Position numbers and translations under genes: made by a program
In this document: one piece after another, positions 4,309 through 38,152 of the stretch
Layout of the letters: each line of letters starts with the position of its first letter
Position numbering within the stretch: the stretch's first letter is position 1
UHGV virus genome: UHGV-1370838
Length of the DNA: 38,152 nt
Direction: 5' to 3' (one strand)
From: a virus
Notes under the pieces: model-generated
Databases searched by the model: none
Told to the model about the DNA's origin: nothing
The model's input: only the letters and a program-made list of their open reading frames with translations

Positions 4309-6818
4309 TGCGGAATATCTCCGGAGAATCTCTGACGTTTCTGTGTCAGATTAAGAACAACGGGAGAACCATCATCTTTCAGCAGATAACCAGTACCAAG
4401 TTTCACCAGGTACTGACTATCGCCGTAACTTTGCAAACCATACTGACCAGGCGGTGTTTTTATCCCGGAGCCGACAACTTGTTCATTCCAAGCCTGATTA
4501 ACCTGCTTATCGAATTGCTCTGCAGACATTCCCCACGGCAAAAGGACATTCCCCATTCCGTTATAGTCATGCACGCCACCTGTAGCTACGTTAACAGCCT
4601 GTTTCCAGATATCAGTGTCAATTTCGCCTGATATCACGCCTTTTTTCGCCATCACACCAGCGTAATAGTCCTTTGCGATCTCGTATGCCATTGATGCCCC
4701 CTGAGCATCACCAGCAAATGCATCCTTCACCATGTCAGAAAACTCAAGGCGAAGATCAGCATCTTTAGGCATCGGAATACCTTTCGCATCATCAGTACCT
4801 TTACGAGCCGCCGCGCCAGTAAGAATTGTCTGCGCAGCGGTTTCAGGAGACACGGAAACATCCGGATTAAACCAGTTTTTTTCTGCCAAAATACCACCAG
4901 GCTTGTCCATCAGTATCCCGGCAACGGCAGCAGATGGAGCGTTGGCACTGATCTGCTGTAGTGCTGACATATACACCTGCCCACCACCAGTGCTCTGCCT
5001 GATGGTATCGAGATATGCTGCCTGTTGGGAAACTGGAGCATCACGAAAAAAAACACCGATCTGATTGGCCTCGTCTTTGGAAAAGAACGTCAGTGGAGTG
5101 CCATATGACTTAGCAAGGTCACTGACCTGAGCGGCACGCAAGGCAACGCTCTGTCCAAAGTTATCCTTATTGCTCATGTCGATAGGCTTTGCCTGTCCAG
5201 AGGCAAGAGAGAACTGCACAGGATCAGACTGCCGCTGCTTTATCACCTGATTTGCAGCCGAAACAACGTTGTCATAAAGAGCTGCGCGAGCCGCATAACC
5301 CTCCCCTGTCTCACCAGTATCCGGGCGTAATTGCTCAACATATGCTGTAATGCTGCTTGTCGGCATGTTGCGGAAAGAGCCTATATACTGTCCGGCGATC
5401 TGCGTATTCTTAAACTCGGTATATCGCAGGTTTCCTTCTCTGACTCCATAAGCTGCAATAAAATCAGCCTCACCAGGTGGGTTAGGAAATTCAACGCCAC
5501 GCATATACGCAGCCGTCGCATCGCGAACCTGGCTGTCAATCATCGTTTTATATTCAGCCTGCTGCTGCCGACGCAGTTGATCCGCCTGCCGCATAAAACT
5601 TGCCTGAGCCTCAGGAGATGCCGCATCGAATGCTGCATTACCGGTATAGCGTTTGGTGTTGGTTGGAATTGTTGATAAACCAAGTGCTGCACTGACACCA
5701 GCAGTTAACTGCTGATCACTGTATGGCTGGCTACCGTTCTCATGATGGATAATGGCTGCACAAAGCGCCTTCAGGGTATCAGGATTTGATGCATCGAGAG
5801 GCTCATCAGCAGAAACGCCAAGTTGTTCGCACACTGCTTTGATATACGACATAGTGTCATTTTTATCAGTAGGCGGTGCCCAGCGATTAATTATCTCGCT
5901 GACGGTATCAATACCCTGCCGCTGATACGACATCAGGTTCCGCCCTAATGCACGAATCCCGTGTTCAGGTGTTTCGAATTTAGCAAATCTACCATCATCA
6001 CCGGTCTGGCCTACCCACGGATTAGTTTTGCTGTATTCGAGATTTCCGGGGTTATTGTTGCGTATGCCACGGACACGCTCGGAAGAGCCACTATCTGTTA
6101 CAGCACGGCGAGCTCCAGCAGCAGTATCACTTAACTCGCCATTACTTTGGATGAATGCGGTCGCATTGTTTGCCGACCACTGGGACAATGCTGCATCAGC
6201 AACCTTCTCTTTAAACTCGATTTTCTTGGCCTGTATTTGCTCGTCGCTCCAGCCATGTGCAGCACCGTACTCCTCAATTTGCTGGAAAGTTTGCTTATTA
6301 GCCAATACGTATGCGGCATTGTCGCCATACAATGCTGCGGCATTTTTACCATTGTTCAGCAGCGTCGCCTGAAACTGACCTTCTTCGTAGGCATTAATTT
6401 GCCCTATCTCGTGCCGCCCGGCCTGCGTAGTGAACTGAATGCGCTGCTGCTGCGCCTGCTGCATGAAAGCATTACGAGCCTGTTCATCCGGCAGCGACAT
6501 AGCCAGTTGTTCGACCTGAGCATCAAACTGCTGCGTATACTCATGGCCTTTTCCAATAGCATTTTTCCCTTCCAGGTTAAGCAAACCTGTTTCAGGGTTA
6601 TTCAGCAGATCACTGCTTATCTGACTGAGGTTAAGAGATGCCTCCTGAGCCAGAGCGATATTGGCACGCTGTTTTGCCTGCCCCAAAACATCAATTGCCT
6701 CTGTCCCTGCCCGAACAAAAGCATCACCAATACCTGGCTGAGAAAACGTCTGCAAGCCTGCTGACTGAACTCCACGGCTCTCAACCTGGCGTCCGGATAC
6801 TGTTGGTACGACTGGCAT
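4305..6818 (-). CDS. internal virion protein with putative muralytic domain
   Basis: Start moved to ATG at 6816-6818 (GGAGG SD; TAATG overlap with upstream stop); contains GIRNNNPGNL motif that I recall from virion-associated peptidoglycan hydrolase domains. Confidence 0.6.
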   Translation of the reverse strand: MPVVPTVSGRQVESRGVQSAGLQTFSQPGIGDAFVRAGTEAIDVLGQAKQRANIALAQEASLNLSQISSDLLNNPETGLLNLEGKNAIGKGHEYTQQFDAQVEQLAMSLPDEQARNAFMQQAQQQRIQFTTQAGRHEIGQINAYEEGQFQATLLNNGKNAAALYGDNAAYVLANKQTFQQIEEYGAAHGWSDEQIQAKKIEFKEKVADAALSQWSANNATAFIQSNGELSDTAAGARRAVTDSGSSERVRGIRNNNPGNLEYSKTNPWVGQTGDDGRFAKFETPEHGIRALGRNLMSYQRQGIDTVSEIINRWAPPTDKNDTMSYIKAVCEQLGVSADEPLDASNPDTLKALCAAIIHHENGSQPYSDQQLTAGVSAALGLSTIPTNTKRYTGNAAFDAASPEAQASFMRQADQLRRQQQAEYKTMIDSQVRDATAAYMRGVEFPNPPGEADFIAAYGVREGNLRYTEFKNTQIAGQYIGSFRNMPTSSITAYVEQLRPDTGETGEGYAARAALYDNVVSAANQVIKQRQSDPVQFSLASGQAKPIDMSNKDNFGQSVALRAAQVSDLAKSYGTPLTFFSKDEANQIGVFFRDAPVSQQAAYLDTIRQSTGGGQVYMSALQQISANAPSAAVAGILMDKPGGILAEKNWFNPDVSVSPETAAQTILTGAAARKGTDDAKGIPMPKDADLRLEFSDMVKDAFAGDAQGASMAYEIAKDYYAGVMAKKGVISGEIDTDIWKQAVNVATGGVHDYNGMGNVLLPWGMSAEQFDKQVNQAWNEQVVGSGIKTPPGQYGLQSYGDSQYLVKLGTGYLLKDDGSPVVLNLTQKRQRFSGDIPQ

Positions 6819-16401: not shown

Positions 16402-16478
16402 GTGGCATTAGCTCAGTCGGACAGAGCAACCGCCTTCTAAGCGGTTGGTCGCAGGTTCGAATCCTGCATGCCACGCCA
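16402..16478 (+). tRNA. tRNA-Arg (anticodon UCU)
   Basis: Cloverleaf folded by hand: acceptor GTGGCAT/ATGCCAC, D-stem GCTC/GAGC, anticodon stem ACCGC/GCGGT with loop CTTCTAA, T-stem GCAGG/CCTGC with TTCGAAT loop, discriminator G, encoded CCA. Confidence 0.9.
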
Positions 16479-24566: not shown

Positions 24567-25151
24567 ATGAAAAGTATCCAGGACGTCCGCAGGCAAAATC
24601 TCAACGACTTGATCGACCGTGAATTCAATGGTGTTCAGACGCGGATGGCAGAAAAACTTGGAACTCAGGCAAATCTGGTAAACCGCTGGGCTCTTGGCAA
24701 GAAGGTTATCGGCGACCAGGTTGCGCGAAAAATTGAAGCTGCCGCCAATAAACCCCGTAACTGGCTTGATATCGATCGCTCGCTTTCTCAGGAAGGTTTT
24801 CAGCCTGTCGGCCCAAGCGACATTGGTCAGCTGGCAGCTCACAACCTGGAACGCTGGATGAGTGAAAGCCGCGACCTTTCAACTCAGGGAAAACTTCACC
24901 GCGCATCCGGCGTCGCCCAGGTGACAATAAGCCGCCTGTTAAACAATGAGGTCAGCGTTTCCATTTCCACCCTGGAGAATGTTGCATCTGCATTCGGGCG
25001 TCACGGATATGAACTACTGATTCATCCGCATGACCCTGCGACCATCAACTATGATCGCTCGCGCTACGCATTGTTACCCGAAACCGAGAAAGCAAAGATC
25101 GAAAGTTACATTGAATTTGTCATCAACCAGAACGAAAAAAACAAACAATAA
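24567..25151 (+). CDS. CI-like prophage repressor with two HTH domains and no peptidase domain
   Basis: 194 aa; two XRE-type HTH segments (residues about 25-45 and 110-135); no Ser/Lys autopeptidase motif seen. Confidence 0.7.
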   Translation: MKSIQDVRRQNLNDLIDREFNGVQTRMAEKLGTQANLVNRWALGKKVIGDQVARKIEAAANKPRNWLDIDRSLSQEGFQPVGPSDIGQLAAHNLERWMSESRDLSTQGKLHRASGVAQVTISRLLNNEVSVSISTLENVASAFGRHGYELLIHPHDPATINYDRSRYALLPETEKAKIESYIEFVINQNEKNKQ

Positions 25152-27564: not shown

Positions 27565-27813
27565 ATGAAAGGTGCATTAGGTAAGAAAGAACTCCTGGCG
27601 GTGGTGCCACTGTCATGGAGCACTATCGACCGTATGGAGCGCGCAGGGGAATTTCCTAAACGCTGGTATATCACCGATAAACGCTGCGCATGGAACCGTG
27701 ATGAAGTTGAGCGTTGGCTTGATGAACGTCAGGCAGCAAGCCCGGCAGAGTTCCAGGGTAAAAAGCCTCCTGTTCAGCAACGTGTATATCGTCCCGTGAG
27801 CAACGCTGCATGA
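27565..27813 (+). CDS. AlpA/excisionase-like HTH protein
   Basis: 82 aa; LSWSTIDRMERAGEFPKRWYITDKRCAWNRDEVERWL is typical of AlpA/Xis-type HTH. Confidence 0.7.
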   Translation: MKGALGKKELLAVVPLSWSTIDRMERAGEFPKRWYITDKRCAWNRDEVERWLDERQAASPAEFQGKKPPVQQRVYRPVSNAA

Positions 27814-28865: not shown

Positions 28866-29521
28866 ACCTATATCAACGCATCAATGGCGCTGACTGGTGC
28901 AATATCTTCGTCGTCGGCGATCTGCATGGGTGCTACACGCTGCTGATGAACGAACTCGACAAAGTTTCATTCGACCCGGCGCGCGATTTGCTTATTTCCG
29001 TTGGTGACCTTGTTGACCGCGGCGCTGAAAACGTCGAATGCCTGGATTTGATTACTATGCCGTGGTTCCGAGCTGTTCGTGGCAACCATGAGCAGATGAT
29101 GCTGGATGCACTGGTCAACGGCGGAAGTTTCGGACATTGGATGTCAAACGGCGGTGGATGGTGGCACCAACTTGATTCTGAGCAGGATGTGCAACTCAAA
29201 TACCTTCTGCCAAAGGTTACCAACCTCCCGATGATTATCGAACTGGTTACCGGCAATAAGAAGGTCGTCATCTGCCACGCAGACTACCCGCACAACGAAT
29301 ACGCATTCGATAAGCCAGTACCGGAAGAAATGGTGATATGGAATCGTGAGCGGGTTAGCGACGCGCAGGACGGTATTGTCTCGGAGATAACCGGTGCCGA
29401 TTTGTTCATCTTCGGTCATACGCCAGCACATCACCCACTGGTGTATGCAAACCAAATGTACATCGACACCGGCGCAGTGTTCTGCGGAAATCTGACGCTT
29501 ACCAAAGTCCAGGAAGGATAG
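28862..29521 (+). CDS. Ser/Thr protein phosphatase (lambda phosphatase-like metallophosphoesterase)
   Basis: GDLHG, GDLVDRG and GNHE metallophosphatase motifs; ATGA overlap with the methyltransferase. Confidence 0.8.
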
Positions 29522-29523
29522 AA

Positions 29524-30780
29524 TTATTTATTACTGTCTTCCATCCACCTCTCAAACTTCGACGGGGAGAACGGAATCAGATCCGTATGCTCCCCGTTAA
29601 TCCAGGAATCAATCATATCGGCCCACTGCTGCAACATGTAGGCGCGCTGTCTGGCGTATTCCGCTTTGTTATATACGGCGCGCACACCTTTCTGCTCATG
29701 TGCCAGAGCCTTTTCAATCCAGTCTGAAGGATAACCAGCCTCATGCAACAACGTACTGGCTGTACGGCGCATATCGTGTACGGTGAAGCCCTGAATATGC
29801 TCACCATCTTCATTTATTATTTTCACCGTTCTGTCGATCAGAGAGTTCAGCGCGGCATTAGATAATGGCTTCCGGAAATTGTAACGACCAGGAACCAGAT
29901 ATTCACTTCCACCAGCGCACATCTGCAACCCGACCAATATATCCTGAGCCTGTTTAGGCAGGTAAATAACGTGCGCCCGGCTTCCCTTCATGCGGTCTGA
30001 AGGAATTGTCCATGTCCATTTTTTAAAATCTATTTCATCCCACGTTGCGTTGGTGAATTCGCCTTTACGAACCATAGTGATAAGCACCAGCTTTAAAGCC
30101 ATTTTCATAGTGCCCATAGCACCAATGGCATCCAGCGTGCGGAAGAACAGGCCAATTTCTTCTGGTGTCAGTGTTCGCTCTCTTGGTTTAAATATGGCGA
30201 TAGACGAAGGTTTAATGTCAGCCGCAGGATTAAACAAACCATGACCACGGTCATTGGCGTGACGGTATACGCTGCTGATGATCTCCCTTGCCTGTACTGC
30301 TGTTGCCCGACCACCGCGTTCGACAATCCGGTCACACAAATCACGAACCATCGATGTGGTAATTTCAGTCATCATTTTGTTGCCAAGAACTGGAAGTATG
30401 TCACGGTCGATCACCGCCTGCTTCATTGCGCGGGTACTGTCAGCCAGGATGACGTGTTTCATATAACTGTCGGTATGTACCGTAAACGTCTCGGCACCAT
30501 GAATCTTTTTGATACCGTCACGTTTAGCCGCAGCCGGTGACTGGCCTGCTTTAAGCAGCTTCTTTGCAGCAATCAGTTCTTCTCGCGCTTCTGCCAGGCT
30601 GATACCGTCACGCCCATACTGCCCGATTACCAGTGTTTCGCGGCGACCGTTGATACGGTAGTCATAGCGAAACGAGACCGTGCCTGACGTAAGCACAGCT
30701 ACATACAGCCCGTCACGATCGGAGACCTTGTACAGTTTGTCCTGCGGCTTGAGGTTTTTTAATTTTGTATCGGTAAGCAC
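29524..30780 (-). CDS. int: tyrosine integrase (P4-like family)
   Basis: 418 aa; P4-type N-terminal arm-binding domain pattern and C-terminal catalytic domain; GTG start. Confidence 0.9.
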   Translation of the reverse strand: MLTDTKLKNLKPQDKLYKVSDRDGLYVAVLTSGTVSFRYDYRINGRRETLVIGQYGRDGISLAEAREELIAAKKLLKAGQSPAAAKRDGIKKIHGAETFTVHTDSYMKHVILADSTRAMKQAVIDRDILPVLGNKMMTEITTSMVRDLCDRIVERGGRATAVQAREIISSVYRHANDRGHGLFNPAADIKPSSIAIFKPRERTLTPEEIGLFFRTLDAIGAMGTMKMALKLVLITMVRKGEFTNATWDEIDFKKWTWTIPSDRMKGSRAHVIYLPKQAQDILVGLQMCAGGSEYLVPGRYNFRKPLSNAALNSLIDRTVKIINEDGEHIQGFTVHDMRRTASTLLHEAGYPSDWIEKALAHEQKGVRAVYNKAEYARQRAYMLQQWADMIDSWINGEHTDLIPFSPSKFERWMEDSNK

Positions 30781-30822
30781 AATTCACCCGTATAGAAACC
30801 ATTTTCATGACGGTATGAGAGT

Positions 30823-30837
30823 ATACCTTTAAGGTAA
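30823..30837. promoter_or_regulatory. operator-like palindrome ATACCTTTAAGGTAA (1 mismatch) upstream of int
   Basis: 43 bp upstream of int start; nested inside inverted repeat GACGGTAT...ATACCGTC. Confidence 0.45.
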
Positions 30838-30892
30838 TACCGTCACCTGTACCGCAGAAAAATATGGTGTAGAGTGAATAGAAATGAATACA

Positions 30893-30926
30893 TAAAAACA
30901 AAAACCCTCTGTAAAAACAGAGGGTT
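30893..30926 (-). terminator. intrinsic terminator ending the lysis operon
   Basis: AACCCTCTG-TAAAAA-CAGAGGGTT perfect 9-bp stem; minus-strand T-run TTTGTTTTT. Confidence 0.75.
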
Positions 30927-30979
30927 AAATTAGTATCTGAATAGGAATGAGTTGCTATGAGTTAGCTGTTAATCATTCC

Positions 30980-31016
30980 CACTCAATTATTTACGGACAC
31001 CATAACCAATTGAGTG
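30980..31016. repeat. 9-bp inverted repeat CACTCAATT / AATTGAGTG with 19-bp spacer (attP-region candidate)
   Basis: Read directly, in the noncoding stretch between int and lysis genes. Confidence 0.3.
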
Positions 31017-31097
31017 ATAACATTTTTCCAAAGATGAATTTTTCCCGTACCGTTTTATATACCGTCACCGGAAATCAGTACCATGAAAAATGCCATG

Positions 31098-31580
31098 CTA
31101 TCTGGTCAGGGTGTCGTACTGTTTTTCGCAGACTCTTCCGGCTTCGGCTGCCCGGTCAGCATACTCTGCCAGTTGTCTGTTTCTCTCGAGAGATTTGCTG
31201 AGCACGTCGGCAAGCAAAACTCCGGTATCTGCGGCTGACGACCCAGCGCCGACAATGGCGTTATAGTGCCTGAGCTGCTCACGGATGGCAACGAGCTGTT
31301 GCTGCAACCGGCCAGCGCGAGCGGCAGCATCAAGAGCATCATTGCGCGCCTGGTCGATCCTCTGCTGCGCTTCACGTTCATTGATCGATTTCTCCTGTTC
31401 GTAGTGCTGACGAACTCTCTCATCTTCGGTTTTGCGGTCTTCTTTCGCCTGTGCATACCCGGCGTCGTACTGACGACTGCCGTGCACATTCCAGGCAACA
31501 ACTCCTGATATGACCAGAACAGCAAGCACCGCCATGATAATCAACTGATTACGGTATGCTTTTACGAATGCCCAGATCAT
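31098..31580 (-). CDS. i-spanin (Rz-like)
   Basis: N-terminal TM segment then Gln/Arg/Ala-rich coiled coil; last gene of lysis cassette. Confidence 0.65.
31106..31381 (-). CDS. o-spanin (Rz1-like lipoprotein) nested in +1 frame
   Basis: Signal peptide with lipobox LAGC; Pro-rich mature part; start uncertain (31381 or 31342). Confidence 0.5.
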   Translation of the reverse strand: MNVKRSRGSTRRAMMLLMLPLALAGCSNSSLPSVSSSGTITPLSALGRQPQIPEFCLPTCSANLSRETDNWQSMLTGQPKPEESAKNSTTP

Positions 31581-32206
31581 ACGGCCAGCACCTTACTGGC
31601 AGTAACGTACCGCGCGCGCCGGTCGTCGATGCCGTTCCGGCCACCATTGATAATCAGAGTTACACGTGCAATATCTCCGGGATACTTCATGCAGCCTTTG
31701 CTGGAGAAGAACCACGCCGCGCTACGAGCCGCGTATTCGTCCTGCGTCAACAGCTCAGGATTCTCCAGCAGGTCCACTTTTAGACCGTTTCCGCAGTCAC
31801 GATAGTTATTCAAACCGGTAATCTGGATAAGCCCGCGCCCACGGTAAAACCAGCCGTCAGTCGGCCCGTTGTTCCCCATGCGCTTGCTATACACCAGATT
31901 GGCGATCGCACGCTGGCGCTCCAGCGGTAACGATGGCTCACCAGCACGACGGCCCAGCGCGTTGGCCTGGCCCTGAGTGAGGCGCCCGGCACGGACGAAT
32001 CCCGCCAGCCCAGTCACGCTGTAGTTGAAGTTCTCCTGCAGCCGGGTGAAGCCTCCAGACTCATGCCCGACCTGAGCAATAAACATTGCCTGATCTTCTG
32101 GTTTGCTGATACCAAACTCTTTCATCGCAGAAGTTATATGCGAGAACCAGCGTGCGGCCAGCGCCTCGCTAATACCAGCAGCTCGCTGGAATTGTTTAAT
32201 CTCCAT
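31577..32206 (-). CDS. endolysin, glycoside hydrolase family 19-like
   Basis: [16 protein letters not shown]-type GH19 motif; GAGG SD. Confidence 0.8.
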
Positions 32207-32504
32207 GTTTAGACCTCGTTATTTTGAAAATCTGAACGACGTTACCGCGAGTTTTAAGAACCGCAGCAAGCATGACAGCGTTGATAATGACCTCAGATAA
32301 ATCCACAGCCATTGGCGTGCGTAACCAGATTGCATAGACGACACGAACAGGAATACTGGCCGCAGCAACAATAAGGAAATAAGCAAGCCACCCTCCCCAC
32401 CTTCGATGTTGTGAACCGTTACGCCGGAATGTGACAACACGAATTGCTATGCCAGTACAAATAAGTGCATTGGTGATAAGCAAAACAAGCTCATTAGTTA
32501 CCAT
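32196..32504 (-). CDS. holin/antiholin-like membrane protein
   Basis: 102 aa with about 3 TM segments; between holin and endolysin. Confidence 0.55.
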
Positions 32505-32895
32505 CGCCTTTTCTCCCCGGAATTAACTCGCGTGGATTATCGGAACGGTGATAGAGCCAGATGCCAATTCGAACTGCAACGATTGCTGACACGAATGCAC
32601 CAGCAGAGAAAACAATCCCTTTCTCGAAAGAGTCCTGCGTGATGGTAGGGATCAGGCTGGCTATGCCGATAAGAATTGATGCTGCTGGTTTATAGAAAAG
32701 AAGTCCGCAGAGAAAGCTAAGCATCGATAAGAGTACGCGACGATGAATTGGGTACTCTACCGCAGAGGTAACAAAAATTACCGCACCAGCAAGAGCACCT
32801 AAAGCCACCTCAGGCGGTATACCAACGAACACGGACGCCAGTGCAGTCAGGCTTAACCCCTGATTTACTGACTCTGTTGTCAGCACATGCGCCAT
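32494..32895 (-). CDS. holin-like membrane protein
   Basis: ATG at 32893-32895 with GGTGG SD; multiple TM segments; first gene of lysis cassette. Confidence 0.6.
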   Translation of the reverse strand: MAHVLTTESVNQGLSLTALASVFVGIPPEVALGALAGAVIFVTSAVEYPIHRRVLLSMLSFLCGLLFYKPAASILIGIASLIPTITQDSFEKGIVFSAGAFVSAIVAVRIGIWLYHRSDNPRELIPGRKGDGN

Positions 32896-33000
32896 AGTGA
32901 CCACCGTTTATTGTGCATAAAGAACCCCCTTAGTTGGTGAGTTCATCATACACAATAAACCATATGTGGATTAATTTTGATCGGATAACTCTTAACGAAA

Positions 33001-33051: not shown

Positions 33052-34911
33052 ATGTCTTCTTTAAAATACAGAACTGATATAGGCGGACTCAGGGCTATTG
33101 CTGTCATGGCAGTTGTCCTTTATCACTTCGGAGTCAAAGGGTTTTCTGGTGGGTTTTCAGGAGTAGATATATTCTTTGTTATATCAGGGTATCTGATGAC
33201 TGGAATAATTTACACAAAGATAGAAAATGAAAACTTTTCACTGTTAGGATTTTATCTTGATAGGGCAAGAAGGATTATACCTGCTTTAACTGTAGTTTCA
33301 GTTGCTGTTCTGATAGTTGGTTACTTCATTCTTTTACCTTCTGAATATGAATACCTGGCTCAACACGTAAGAAGTAGCCTTTTATTTTTCTCAAACGTTG
33401 AGTATTACCATAGCATTGATTATTTTGATACTGCATCAAAGCAGAAATGGCTTCTTCATACATGGTCGCTTTCTGTAGAGTGGCAGTTTTACATGGTATA
33501 TCCAATCATAATGATGGTAATTGCAAAGCTATTGGGCGCTAAGCATATAAGGTATGTTGTTGCCATCCTTGCAATTATATCATTTACTGCCTCAGTGTAT
33601 CTTTCTTATAATAATCAGGGGGCTGCATTTTATCTTCTGTCAAGCAGAGCTTGGGAGATGCTGGCTGGCGGCCTTGCCTACCTTCTTCCTACTATACAAA
33701 ATTCAAAACGCACTGCTGTATTTAGATGGATTGCCATAGCCTTTGCAGTATCGGGGATAGTCTTGCTTAACAGCTTAATGAAGTGGCCTGGGTATCTTGC
33801 CTTAATACCAGTCGTTTCTACTTTCTTTGTCATTTATCTTGGATGTAAAGATAACCTGTTACTTGATAATGCATTATCTCAATGGGTTGGGAAAATTTCA
33901 TACTCGGTATATCTGGTTCACTGGCCCATAGTTGTCTATATGTCAATGAATAAGATGGATGATATGGTTTATACAGTATCAGGTGTTGCCTTATCAATTC
34001 TTATTGGTGCCGCATCATTTTATTTAATTGAAAACCCTTCAAGAAAGGCACTTTCAAAATTTAAAAACGGCAGGTCCTTGAATGAATTAACTTTAATCGT
34101 GCTACCTGTAGGTGGTGTAGTTGGTTTGTGCTTCGCTGTACTATTGCTATCTGGAATTCCATCAAGGTTTTCGTTTGTCACAATGACGTCCGAACAGCTA
34201 AAAGAACAAATGAACAGGTATTGGGTTGATGGAGACAAGCCTCACCCTGTACCGAAGACAGGTGACAAAAAAATAGTAATAATCGGTAATTCTCATGGCA
34301 TAGATCTGACTTATGCACTTACTGAAAATGGGATGAAGGGTGATATAACTTATATAAGAACTACAAACTTATGTTCAAACTTTGGTTATACACCAAACGA
34401 CATGCCCTATGTAGAAAAGTGCAAAAAAATATTCAATGACGTGATCTCATCTCCAGCCATAGCTGAAGCTAACATTATAATCCTTCATGATGATTATGGC
34501 GTTGGCGATCTGTTCGGGATGCTTTACTCTATAGGCAAAATACAGGAGAGGACTAAAGGAGAAGTTATTGTATTTGGGCCTAAGATGAAGTTTACGGCAC
34601 AGCCAATGGAAATAATTAAGTCTGCTTTTAAATCTGGCGTAAACACAGTTGATGGGATAAATAAATACTCTAAAAAGTATTATGACAATAGTAGAGTTGA
34701 AATTAACAATACGATAAAAGGCTATCTTGGTAGCAACCAGCATTCGTATAAATACATAGATACGCTTGCCGAGCAGTGCGGAAAGTCAATGAATTGTGAC
34801 ATCCTTTCTACTAAAGGTGATTATCTTTACTTTGACAATAGTCATTTCACTCTAGAAGGCTCAAGGGAGTTTGGGAAAAAATTAAAAAATGACAAGCCAT
34901 TTATTTTTTAA
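33052..34911 (+). CDS. O-antigen acetyltransferase (acyltransferase-3 membrane domain fused to SGNH-like domain, OafA/Oac-type)
   Basis: 619 aa; N-terminal GGLRAIAV...LYHF motif and about 10 TM segments; C-terminal soluble domain with GNSH; visibly AT-rich versus flanks. Confidence 0.85.
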   Translation: MSSLKYRTDIGGLRAIAVMAVVLYHFGVKGFSGGFSGVDIFFVISGYLMTGIIYTKIENENFSLLGFYLDRARRIIPALTVVSVAVLIVGYFILLPSEYEYLAQHVRSSLLFFSNVEYYHSIDYFDTASKQKWLLHTWSLSVEWQFYMVYPIIMMVIAKLLGAKHIRYVVAILAIISFTASVYLSYNNQGAAFYLLSSRAWEMLAGGLAYLLPTIQNSKRTAVFRWIAIAFAVSGIVLLNSLMKWPGYLALIPVVSTFFVIYLGCKDNLLLDNALSQWVGKISYSVYLVHWPIVVYMSMNKMDDMVYTVSGVALSILIGAASFYLIENPSRKALSKFKNGRSLNELTLIVLPVGGVVGLCFAVLLLSGIPSRFSFVTMTSEQLKEQMNRYWVDGDKPHPVPKTGDKKIVIIGNSHGIDLTYALTENGMKGDITYIRTTNLCSNFGYTPNDMPYVEKCKKIFNDVISSPAIAEANIIILHDDYGVGDLFGMLYSIGKIQERTKGEVIVFGPKMKFTAQPMEIIKSAFKSGVNTVDGINKYSKKYYDNSRVEINNTIKGYLGSNQHSYKYIDTLAEQCGKSMNCDILSTKGDYLYFDNSHFTLEGSREFGKKLKNDKPFIF

Positions 34912-34946: not shown

Positions 34947-37199
34947 TCAACCTATTTTAGTGTAAGTCCAGTTAAATGTTGCCGCGCCCTGACTTGTTAC
35001 CGCTACATTCCTTCCCGATGAAGAAAATGTTATGAATGCTCCGGCTTTTAATGGCGTTAGAGTTAATGAGCCATCATACATCGCTAGTTGTGTAGAAGAG
35101 TAGTTTGTGCCGCCGCCAGAACCCCATACACTAATGAGATACATCCCCTGCATATCAGGCAATGCAAACAATGTTGTTTCGGTGTTGGCATTTACGGATT
35201 GTGTTCCTTTTGCGGTGTAGAAACCAGGTGTCTGTAGCCCCGTTGATGATACTTGTTGAGTGTAACCGCCAGAAACAGTACCAGATATCGGGGTGCAGAA
35301 CCAGTTAACGTTACCCTGACTAACTACTGATAAAACCGGGGAGCCGCCTGCAGGCGCGCGCCAACGACCGCTGTACACGTCAATTCGGGATGTTGTGTCC
35401 TTAGCGTATAACGTAATAGGGTATCCACCAGTCCCGGAGTAAGGGATTGCGCTATCAGACAAGTCATCCTCAGAAGAATCGATTATAACCTGACTTGTCC
35501 CGGATGCCTTTATGAAAGAAACGACACCACTTGCCGCCGGGGCTACAGTTTTTAACTGATTTTGCCCTGCTGTGAGCCCGGATATTTTGCCATTAGTATT
35601 CTCAAAATGGAAAAGAGTTGCATCCCCACTACCATCTGTGGAAATTATATTTCCTTCCGCATCAAATCCCACAATGTTAACGCTGTGTGAGTTAATGAAA
35701 TGGACACCTGCTCCGCCGAATGAACCACCAGAAAGTGTAATGCTTGATTGGTCCATAGCGCAGTTGAGCATAGTTACAGACATAACGGCGCCAAATTGAT
35801 AAGGCGAGACGCATCCGGATGCGTAGCAAGTCTCCATCAAAATGGTCGTACCAAGCGCCTTAATAAAGCCGTCGTGGCAATTCCGCGCCCATACGTTTTG
35901 CAACTTAGTAAGGTAAGTTCCGGTGGCGTCGTAGAAACAGCGCCATGCACCATGTACTGTGCAGTTTTTAATCTCAGACATTTCAAGACCAGTAGTACCG
36001 GCTTCAGTGGAATAGAAATTAAATGCTATCTTCCCACCATCATCTTCAGGATTCGTTGGTGTGGTTCCTGGATCATAGAAAATATAAAGACCATCAATAA
36101 AAATCTGAATCATTTTTGTCGATAGGGAATCACCTTGATCTAAAGCAAAGGCTGATATATTCCCAACAATTGACATGAAAGACTGAGAACGGTTTATTGC
36201 ATCAGTCCCTTCACCAACAATTCTGACTGAATTATTAAATATAATTGTGGCATTATAATATCCAAGACCTTTTGGGATTAGCACCTTTTTACCAGTATTA
36301 CATGCGGCCTGCAGCGCCGCATAATCCAACGATTGCGTGAGAGACGTAACAAATGGATATACCATCTGAGCAGCTGATAGTGTTGAAAATATCTCGCTTA
36401 AAGGGTGAAGCGTTCCGTCAATTGTCGCTCCAAAATCAACAACACTAATGGCTTGTGCATTTTTTATATGCTGCGAAAGAGAAATTGCCCCCTGGTAAGG
36501 CTGCTTCACTGTTATCAGCGCATCACCTTTCCCGTCAGCGCTGCTGGCCAACTGGTTGAATACGTCCGCCGCCGTTCCTGAAGGCACAGGGAAAGGAACA
36601 GGCTTCCCGTTTTGAATGCCGATAATGCTGCCTTCAAGCTGAGCGAGTGGTGGCAGCGGATCGATATAAGCGTCAGGAACTCGGATGGTATGGTTGATGT
36701 TCGATAAAGCCGTGCTGTCCACATAATTCTTTGTGGCTGCATCCTGCGGGTTAACCGGGTCTTTCAGGTTCCGAATATAGTTGTTCAGCGCGTTATAATA
36801 ATTTGCTACGAATGACGGCTTGCGCAGCGCCAAGCTAAACCAACTTCGAACCTGCTGGATCAGCATCGTTAGCTTATCAAAAGCATCCTCATGCACTTCT
36901 GCAAAGAACTTACCCTGATTACGCAAATCAGTTTCCTGCGTAACCGGGAGGTCTCGTGATATAGAAATCTGATAACCGTTAGCTAACGCCTTCGACAGAA
37001 TTACATTACCGCCATTATATCCACCAGCCCCAGTGACAGTGTAATCAGTATCAAGAGCCAGCACAGCGATATTTTCGTCAAGGTCAACCACCTGTACTAC
37101 CAGATCAGATTCCTTGAAAACCCTAAAGGTATACGGAAATGATGTCGTAACGCCGTTACCTGTGTATTCGTTGTGGTCAACTTCGGTTGAGACCGTCAT
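34947..37199 (-). CDS. tailspike / tail fibre protein
   Basis: 750 aa; N-terminal particle-binding-type domain; Gly/Ser/Thr-rich beta-helix-like body; GGAG SD. Confidence 0.8.
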   Translation of the reverse strand: MTVSTEVDHNEYTGNGVTTSFPYTFRVFKESDLVVQVVDLDENIAVLALDTDYTVTGAGGYNGGNVILSKALANGYQISISRDLPVTQETDLRNQGKFFAEVHEDAFDKLTMLIQQVRSWFSLALRKPSFVANYYNALNNYIRNLKDPVNPQDAATKNYVDSTALSNINHTIRVPDAYIDPLPPLAQLEGSIIGIQNGKPVPFPVPSGTAADVFNQLASSADGKGDALITVKQPYQGAISLSQHIKNAQAISVVDFGATIDGTLHPLSEIFSTLSAAQMVYPFVTSLTQSLDYAALQAACNTGKKVLIPKGLGYYNATIIFNNSVRIVGEGTDAINRSQSFMSIVGNISAFALDQGDSLSTKMIQIFIDGLYIFYDPGTTPTNPEDDGGKIAFNFYSTEAGTTGLEMSEIKNCTVHGAWRCFYDATGTYLTKLQNVWARNCHDGFIKALGTTILMETCYASGCVSPYQFGAVMSVTMLNCAMDQSSITLSGGSFGGAGVHFINSHSVNIVGFDAEGNIISTDGSGDATLFHFENTNGKISGLTAGQNQLKTVAPAASGVVSFIKASGTSQVIIDSSEDDLSDSAIPYSGTGGYPITLYAKDTTSRIDVYSGRWRAPAGGSPVLSVVSQGNVNWFCTPISGTVSGGYTQQVSSTGLQTPGFYTAKGTQSVNANTETTLFALPDMQGMYLISVWGSGGGTNYSSTQLAMYDGSLTLTPLKAGAFITFSSSGRNVAVTSQGAATFNWTYTKIG

Positions 37200-37677: not shown

Positions 37678-37689
37678 GTGACATGTCAC
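37678..37689. repeat. perfect 12-bp palindrome GTGACATGTCAC (copy 3 of 3)
   Basis: 25 bp after stop of 37381-37653; preceded by hairpin GGCCGC-AAGA-GCGGCC. Confidence 0.8.
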
Positions 37690-37982
37690 GCTCTTTTTCT
37701 GAATGATAGCCATTCGAAAAATGATGACATTCCACCGCAGACAATAGCAAAGATGATCCCACCAAAGAAGAGAAGGCCAGCCTGCCACCACTCCCACCGC
37801 CATACATCCACAGCGCCAACCATACCAACAATCGCTCCAACAAATGGAATATAGCTCACGATGAAAGCAATGGGGGCTGCAATTATCCAGTGCAATCCCC
37901 ACCATGATTCAAGCCCAGCCATAATTGCTGCCAACTGAAAAAGACCAACGACGATATAAACAATGAATCCTATAGCTTGCAT
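37686..37982 (-). CDS. small Trp-rich integral membrane protein
   Basis: 98 aa; about 3 TM segments; AGGTGA SD. Confidence 0.55.
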   Translation of the reverse strand: MQAIGFIVYIVVGLFQLAAIMAGLESWWGLHWIIAAPIAFIVSYIPFVGAIVGMVGAVDVWRWEWWQAGLLFFGGIIFAIVCGGMSSFFEWLSFRKRA

Positions 37983-37993
37983 GTAGTCACCTA

Positions 37994-38152
37994 TTTACCC
38001 AGTAAAAATCAGAGGCCTCCCCTCAATAAGGCTTGCAACAAGAACTATTCCCTGCACAACAAAGATGAACCAGCAAATAGCTTGAGTCTGAGGGTTAAGA
38101 AAATATTTGTAGCGGTCAATAAATAACAACCCACCAGAAATTATCACACTCA
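37994..38152 (-). CDS. partial hydrophobic ORF running off the right edge
   Basis: Open minus-strand frame ending ...LIEGRPLIFTG; start lies outside the window. Confidence 0.3.

Follow-up and report, generated by a model that had tools for sequence, protein, structure and literature searches.

The window, a stretch of 38,152 bp, very probably represents one complete genome unit of a guaA-targeting phage that resembles phiV10 and epsilon15. It would derive from a circular assembly that was opened at an arbitrary point within a small membrane-protein gene, with the gap between the integrase gene (int) and the lysis genes forming the center of attP. The result is of use mainly for annotation, in which the window may be described as a complete Uetakevirus genome whose attP core is at 30971–30987 and whose attB lies at the guaA 3′ end.

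Relationship to phiV10 and epsilon15

Judged by nucleotide similarity, the window is a phiV10/epsilon15-like temperate podophage and belongs to Uetakevirus, the genus that comprises the epsilon15/phiV10 group. Positions 1–25000 match phiV10 at 97.6% identity with 94% coverage in a nucleotide similarity search, and taking the Escherichia phages phiV10 and phiv142-3 together, the values for the first 25 kb are 97.6–97.7% identity and 94–95% coverage. The remaining 13 kb is mosaic and matches phiV10 at 94.6% identity over 63% of its length. The stretches that are unmatched in phiV10 correspond to the tailspike and the O-antigen-modification module, where the window encodes a 619-aa AT3-SGNH acyltransferase. 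The gene order agrees with that of the phiV10 record, relative to which the window is rotated and reverse-complemented, and the length of 38,152 bp may be compared with 38.4–41.8 kb for Uetakevirus relatives. The small terminase subunit was identified as Pfam Terminase_2. A scan of the whole window against Rfam returned a tRNA as its sole match and none in the attP region.

Closure of the genome

The closure of the window was examined by joining its last 900 bases to its first 900 and searching the product against all complete E. coli genomes. This artificial junction was matched over 1800 of 1800 bases and in a single piece by at least 22 E. coli prophages among the matches listed, the best at 99.9% identity. 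A search of the window for a terminal direct repeat or duplication found none. Because prophages run unbroken through the junction and there is no terminal repeat, the last base directly precedes the first in real phage DNA and the window is exactly one unit. A phage of the same type has also been deposited as a circular record of 38,709 bp (pNADC1036guaAphage). The FT130 prophage was considered as a full-length reference and discarded, as it is a deletion derivative of approximately 29.5 kb. The genes at the edges of the window are as follows.

26–2500, left edge: 824-aa virion-protein ORF, equivalent to PhiV10p20 in position and length
37686–37982 and 37995–38152, right edge: small membrane-protein ORFs
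16 to 1 then 38152 to 37995, minus strand: junction-spanning small hydrophobic ORF of 57 aa, GTG start at 16–14

The initial annotation had described a probably complete permuted phage genome with phage genes at both edges and no host flanks, rather than an integrated prophage in view. Phage genes do occupy both edges, and the two ends are contiguous with each other in E. coli prophages. The seamless junction and the lack of a terminal repeat also support a genome that is complete and circular, while the term "permuted" can be upheld for the sequence record alone. It had further been predicted that the partial ORF at the right edge would continue across the junction and start at a GTG in the first 25 bp, and the minus-strand GTG at 16–14 is such a start. 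The resulting 57-aa ORF is hydrophobic (GRAVY = +1.35) and begins 10 nt past the stop codon of the 824-aa gene, which is the same offset as PhiV10p21 in phiV10. PhiV10p21 has 46 aa and two transmembrane helices. While both proteins are small and hydrophobic, their sequences have no visible similarity; as a result, homology was discarded and only the positional equivalence was kept.

An internal attP, with int beside the lysis genes, also arises in tandem prophages, and the window might be a one-unit slice of two such chromosomal copies instead of a free or circular genome. Tandem arrays do exist, as the chromosome of E. coli 97-3250 has an unbroken int-attP-lysis stretch and three matching places in its record. 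This origin is nevertheless highly improbable for the window, which is exactly one unit and has ends that join without gap, overlap or terminal duplication. Such seamless closure is unexpected of an arbitrary slice of a chromosome and is explained directly by circular assembly.

The attP core and its insertion site in guaA

The attP region lies between int and the last gene of the holin-endolysin-spanin cassette, an Rz-like spanin gene that forms its right boundary.

29524–30780, minus strand: tyrosine integrase of 418 aa, P4/CP4-like, GTG start, transcribed away from attP
30781–31097: noncoding gap of 317 bp between the GTG start of int and the stop of the DUF2514/Rz-like ORF
30971–30987, minus strand: attP common core of 17 bp, AATCATTCCCACTCAAT on the plus strand, from prophage junctions, the end of the guaA CDS and a published 17-mer
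31098–31580, minus strand: Rz-like spanin (DUF2514), from Pfam DUF2514 (4.4e-41) and homologue annotation

Matches to window positions 29000–33000 were found in 578 of 5426 complete E. coli genomes (~11%), usually in two places. In the E. coli chromosomes, the int-side prophage matches end at window position 30987 and are followed by guaA, and the lysis-side matches start at 30971 with yfgI adjoining. When the phage, the int-side junction and the lysis-side junction are read side by side, a 17-bp block is common to phage and host. When rebuilt from the host sequence on either side, the attB site is found intact in 4463 of the 5426 genomes, at up to 100% identity, and is split at the core in the other 963 (~18%). 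Integration puts the phage between guaA and yfgI. The expectation that attP would be found in the 317-bp gap is supported by the split of the prophage matches at 30971–30987, and none of the tests spoke against it. Of the two junctions that were to be sought in bacterial genomes as attL and attR, one adjoins guaA and the other yfgI.

Reverse-complemented, the core AATCATTCCCACTCAAT gives ATTGAGTGGGAATGATT, which is the guaA 3′ end. On the minus strand it reads ATT GAG TGG GAA TGA TT, which is I-E-W-E-stop and the two following bases, and the annotated E. coli guaA CDS terminates within it. A suggested check for core identity with a host gene is answered by these last four codons and stop codon. 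Since the phage brings an identical set of 15 coding bases, integration does not alter GuaA. The core is present once in the phage genome, at a distance of 190 bp from the int start (30780 to 30971), and it shares eight bases with the left arm of a 9-bp inverted repeat that is considered below. No convincing close inverted pair of core-type Int sites was found in or around the 17 bp.

For phage vB_EcoP_ZX5, the reported attP/attB core is attgagtgggaatgatt; it is separated from the int 5′ end by 190 bp and is located at the guaA 3′ end, and the integration junctions of this phage were verified by PCR and Sanger sequencing (PMC9782041). The same core is stated to be the attP of phiV10 and epsilon15 (PMC9782041), an attribution that rests on this statement and on features of the epsilon15 GenBank record. 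The attP core and its spacing from int are already known for phiV10, epsilon15 and vB_EcoP_ZX5; as such, the present finding is correct but not new. From attP and int sequences that are 97% identical, we infer that the window phage would also integrate at guaA.

The exact 17-mer occurs at guaA ends in genomes of many phyla (at least 120 loci), which fits with guaA being a widely used target. Other mobile elements, such as GIsul2 and streptococcal ICEs/IMEs, also insert at the guaA 3′ end. Elements of this kind are the subject of two papers (PMC9376610, PMC4701971). As a common integration site, the guaA 3′ end is useful for calling prophage boundaries.

The integrase and a candidate excisionase

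The int product matched Pfam Arm-DNA-bind_3 (4e-20, residues 2–87), Phage_int_M and Phage_integrase (5.5e-19). A sequence comparison to the PDB identified the N-domains of CP4-like integrases (3ju0 and 3jtz), with lambda Int matching weakly in the catalytic half. The motifs VRKGE, HDMRRT, LAH and AVY, corresponding to the R / HxxR / H / Y residues, were located by eye. A second protein that may take part in recombination is encoded to the left of int.

27565–27813, plus strand: AlpA-family small HTH protein of 82 aa, Pfam Phage_AlpA (3.1e-05, above the curated cutoff)

PhiV10p36, its equivalent in phiV10, is annotated as Phage_AlpA. By family assignment, the 82-aa protein is a candidate excisionase or directionality factor.

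A scan of positions 30400–31400 found no sigma-70 consensus for an int promoter. A possible −10 element was noted by eye at 30820–30825 (AGTATA on the plus strand, TATACT on the minus strand and TATAAT in epsilon15) with no acceptable −35 element. Given this and the empty scan, a claim for an int promoter was dropped.

A repeated motif in the arms of attP

The 9-mer ATACCGTCA has seven copies in the window where 0.17 would be expected, and none of 100 shuffles reached seven. Five of the seven are found within 560 bp around the core.

30512–30520, plus strand: arm-type motif copy inside int that encodes R-D-G-I, from enrichment and epsilon15 annotation
30602–30610, plus strand: arm-type motif copy inside int that encodes R-D-G-I, from enrichment, conservation and epsilon15 annotation
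30808–30816, minus strand: candidate arm-type Int site, inverted (TGACGGTAT on the plus strand), from enrichment, conservation and a 9-bp inverted repeat
30837–30845, plus strand: candidate arm-type Int site ATACCGTCA in the int-side (P) arm, with a TACCG half-copy 12 bp later
31059–31067, plus strand: candidate arm-type Int site in the lysis-side (P′) arm, with a TACCG half-copy 12 bp earlier

Conservation was assessed from an alignment of eight Uetakeviruses from Escherichia, Salmonella, Enterobacter and Klebsiella that covers the copies at 30602, 30808, 30837 and 31059. The copies at 30602, 30837 and 31059 are invariant in all eight phages, and the inverted one at 30808 shows almost no variation. 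At the 30837 copy, GTAATACCGTCA is invariant across the eight phages and their four host genera. At the 31059 copy, TACCGTTTTATATACCGTCAC is likewise invariant (8/8) next to a variable spacer; indeed, the spacer to the right of the core varies freely. The copy at 30602 lies within 11 consecutive invariant bases that include third codon positions, while the adjacent codons vary.

In the GenBank record of epsilon15, the homologous stretch is annotated with four "integrase" sites, three IHF sites, RNase III sites and a terminator. The "integrase" protein_bind features are at the positions homologous to the copies at 30512, 30602, 30837 and 31059. Taken together, the enrichment, the conservation and the epsilon15 predictions suggest that the ATACCGTCA copies are putative arm-type Int sites.

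The gap had also been said to hold an operator-like site, which was given without coordinates. The only candidate is the TGACGGTAT (30808–30816) and ATACCGTCA (30837–30845) pair, a 9-bp inverted repeat that brackets the possible int −10 element. The pair does exist as a candidate; its function, however, is more probably that of integrase arm-type sites. A role as a repressor operator for int in place of an arm-type site is quite improbable, even with the position of the repeat around TATACT (TATAAT in epsilon15) in its favor. In phage P4, the binding of Int to the attP arm has the further effect of repressing the int promoter, and one site could serve both roles in a similar way. Against an operator, the same 9-mer recurs in direct orientation across the core and twice more inside int, a pattern that suits arm-type sites, given that the integrase possesses an arm-binding domain, and does not suit a repressor operator. 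In addition, the phage repressor is encoded 6 kb away (24567–25151), and a scan of the whole window placed none of the seven copies in the repressor/cro-like divergent region. The assignment as arm-type sites is therefore preferred.

Repeats beside the core

In addition to the arm motif, the attP region contains inverted and direct repeats.

30980–31016, no strand assigned: perfect 9-bp inverted repeat, CACTCAATT at 30980–30988 and AATTGAGTG at 31008–31016
30875–30887 and 30938–30950, plus strand: direct repeats TGAATAGRAATGA, 63 bp apart, in invariant columns of the eight-phage alignment

The 9-bp inverted repeat at 30980–31016 had been called by the initial annotation and both of its arms were recovered here. 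It extends to 17 nt at 82% complementarity and is one of three distinct 9-bp inverted repeats in the 317-bp gap. When the 317 bp were shuffled by mononucleotides, 118 of 2000 shuffles contained at least one 9-bp inverted repeat, which makes a single repeat weak evidence. The 19-bp spacer exceeds what a classical C-O-C′ arrangement would allow. Each arm contains ACTCAAnnnnTTA, a partial match to the IHF consensus, and two overlapping stretches homologous to 30980–31016 are annotated as IHF sites in epsilon15 by prediction. In the right arm, ATTGA-T is invariant within an otherwise variable spacer in the eight-phage alignment. From these comparisons, the two ACTCAAnnnnTTA elements are candidate IHF-like bending sites. 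The TGAATAGRAATGA repeats have the opposite orientation to TCATTCCCACTCA of the core and are candidates for binding by an accessory protein.

The inverted repeat may also be considered at the level of RNA. A minus-strand transcript from 31025 to 30885 is calculated to fold into three hairpins with an energy of −44.4 kcal/mol (z = −7.0), a stability that none of 200 shuffles attained, and the 30980–31016 repeat constitutes the first of these hairpins. RNase III sites are annotated in this stretch of the epsilon15 record. The repeat, along with a pairing between GGGAATGA of the core and TCATTCC (30944–30950), could then act mainly as hairpins for processing or stability in the untranslated 3′ portion of the lysis transcript, and not as DNA sites for IHF or Int. 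This appears rather unlikely. Much of the z-score is contributed by the terminator, and the partly conserved right arm carries changes that are without compensation in the left arm, which guaA constrains to be invariant. The RNA-level and DNA-level roles of the repeat are not mutually exclusive.

The terminator and its E. coli counterpart

The strong terminator that had been reported in the gap was located on the minus strand, and its pattern is unique within the window.

30903–30926, minus strand: Rho-independent terminator, stem AACCCTCTGT/ACAGAGGGTT, tail TTTGTTTTTA

It consists of a perfect 10-bp stem, a 4-nt loop and a T-rich tail. The terminator pattern was found once in the window and in 0 of 100 shuffles. 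The stem is invariant in the eight phages apart from single mismatches, and the terminator is annotated in the records of both phiV10 and epsilon15. In the geometry of the lysogen, it is positioned 44 bp past the guaA stop codon.

A comparison may be made to the guaA terminator of E. coli itself, which lies on the yfgI side of attB. The phage-arm terminator (AACCCTCTGT-AAAA-ACAGAGGGTT) and the E. coli guaA terminator (AACCCTCTGT-AGTA-ACAGAGGGTT) have an identical stem and differ in their loops.

The pattern CCCTCTGTNNNNACAGAGGG was present in none of 120 guaA-end loci of other species among the matches listed, which were retrieved with the core and did not include Salmonella. The stems in the flanks of Raoultella, Citrobacter, Enterobacter, Pantoea and Rahnella are of an unrelated GCCCGC type. 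Among the phages, the CCCTCTGT-type stem is kept in all eight regardless of host, bar single mismatches. From the sequences, it is conceivable, if somewhat doubtful, that the two terminators are homologous and that DNA was exchanged between the arm of the phage and the flank of the host. In one direction, an ancestral phage might have captured the Escherichia guaA terminator, perhaps via imprecise excision, and the Uetakeviruses of Salmonella, Klebsiella and Enterobacter would now all carry it. In the other direction, E. coli would keep the scar of an old integration. With either direction, like would be swapped for like upon integration, so that guaA would retain an equivalent terminator. The identity of the terminator stems may serve as a small and possibly unreported case of a phage that preserves the 3′ regulatory context of its target gene.

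A proposed mechanism

By analogy with lambda and P4, Int would connect the core to the repeated ATACCGTCA motif of the arms. The arm sites would comprise two copies on the int side (30837 and, inverted, 30808), one on the lysis side (31059) and two more inside int, and the intasome would extend from approximately −170 to +95 bp relative to the core. The candidate IHF-like sites beside the core probably bend the DNA, and the AlpA-family protein encoded at 27565–27813 probably directs excision. In the phage state, the terminator at 30903–30926 would stop transcription of the lysis operon before it reaches int. In the integrated state, the same terminator would end guaA transcription and shield int from read-through.

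Comparison with known systems

The closest likeness is to phiV10, epsilon15 and ZX5, in which the lysis cassette, attP and int appear in the same gene order with the same terminator and arm motifs as in the window. The attP region of the window is 96.5–97.3% identical to those of phiV10 and ZX5 and 83.8% identical to that of epsilon15, with differences limited to point changes in the variable spacer to the right of the core. The window departs from these phages in its serotype-conversion and tailspike module, which contains the 619-aa AT3-SGNH acyltransferase and a different tailspike.

As in lambda, the integrase of the window has separate arm- and core-binding domains and the short core is held in common with the host site. 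Repeated arm-type sites, here predicted from sequence, are present on both sides of the core, and their span of about −170 to +95 bp is similar to the −160 to +80 of the lambda attP arms. In contrast to lambda, Int is of the P4/CP4 type (Arm-DNA-bind_3), int is transcribed away from attP and not towards it, the end of a protein-coding gene is targeted, and the candidate directionality factor is of the AlpA type.

P4 provides a further parallel. The integrases belong to the same subfamily, with phiV10 Int annotated as INT_P4, int adjoins attP, the arm of which includes the sequence upstream of int, and there is a small AlpA/Vis-like HTH partner. The target is different, however, as P4 integrates into a tRNA-Leu gene and the window phage would integrate at guaA. 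Finally, GIsul2 and the streptococcal ICEs/IMEs follow the same target logic, the end of a universally conserved gene, whereas the elements themselves and their integrases are unrelated to those of the window phage.

Terminators flanking the attachment sites

The terminator in the int-side arm of the phage and the native terminator of E. coli guaA, which sits across attB from the position of the former, share an identical 10-bp stem. The two differ solely in their loops, which are AAAA in the phage arm and AGTA in E. coli.

30903-30926 of the window: terminator of the int-side arm
2953-2976 of L002, an E. coli locus with the yfgI-side flank of attB: native guaA terminator

The stem pattern was not found in the 120 listed guaA-end loci from other species, and the flanks of five other Enterobacterales contain GCCCGC-type stems instead. 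Since the stem is common to the phage and E. coli yet absent from the other species sampled, the comparison of these sequences suggests that the phage arm and the flanking host sequence may have exchanged DNA.

Repeats and outlying motif copies

A conserved direct repeat, TGAATAGRAATGA, is in inverted orientation relative to TCATTCCCACTCA of the core, and its key positions are unchanged across eight phages. The repeat could be a site for an accessory protein, or it could contribute to an RNA hairpin which, in lysogens, also takes in the stop codon of guaA. The candidate arm-type integrase motif ATACCGTCA also has two exact copies away from attP.

30875-30887 and 30938-30950: direct repeat TGAATAGRAATGA, copies 63 bp apart
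5900-5908, minus strand: ATACCGTCA, inside a virion-protein gene
30260-30268, minus strand: ATACCGTCA, deeper within int

Distribution of the core and related prophages

A scan of genome contigs for the exact 17-bp core, ATTGAGTGGGAATGATT, returned, among the matches listed, many bacterial phyla and some archaeal metagenome-assembled genomes. The matches amount to at least 120 loci, with the position at the end of guaA confirmed for a handful of aligned Enterobacterales loci only. This wide occurrence fits the universal conservation of the carboxy terminus of GuaA (...IEWE) and the frequent targeting of guaA by mobile elements.

In the chromosome of E. coli 97-3250 (NZ_CP027599.1, 1515307-1525304), the int-attP-lysis segment is unbroken and 93% identical to the window. 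The record matches the window in three places, and is most simply explained by two phiV10/epsilon15-like prophages in tandem at guaA. Of the prophages listed, that of E. coli FT130 (L005, 12003-41480) is the closest match to the end/start junction of the window (99.9%). It is a deletion derivative of approximately 29.5 kb in which the genes for terminase and replication and the nin-like genes are missing, and the stem of its arm terminator has a T-to-C mismatch.

Some deposited "complete phage genomes" of the phiV10/epsilon15 group begin or end at or beside attP (MN187550.1, JQ011317.1, OR424387.1, OQ921333.1). The final base of the phiv142-3 record matches window position 30987, while the first base of the TL-2011b record matches 30971. 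Such ends evidently derive from prophage coordinates and not from virion ends.

Other genes of the window

Two further features lie elsewhere in the window.

16402-16478, plus strand: tRNA-Arg, anticodon UCU (ARAGORN; Rfam, 73 bits)
33052-34911, plus strand, and 34947-37199, minus strand: low-GC region, approximately 37%

The tRNA-Arg is placed between the terminase and portal regions, and one is annotated at the equivalent position in pNADC1036guaAphage. The low-GC region encodes a 619-aa protein in which an AT3 acyltransferase is joined to an SGNH domain and, beside it, a tailspike unlike that of phiV10. It is a swapped module for serotype conversion and host range.
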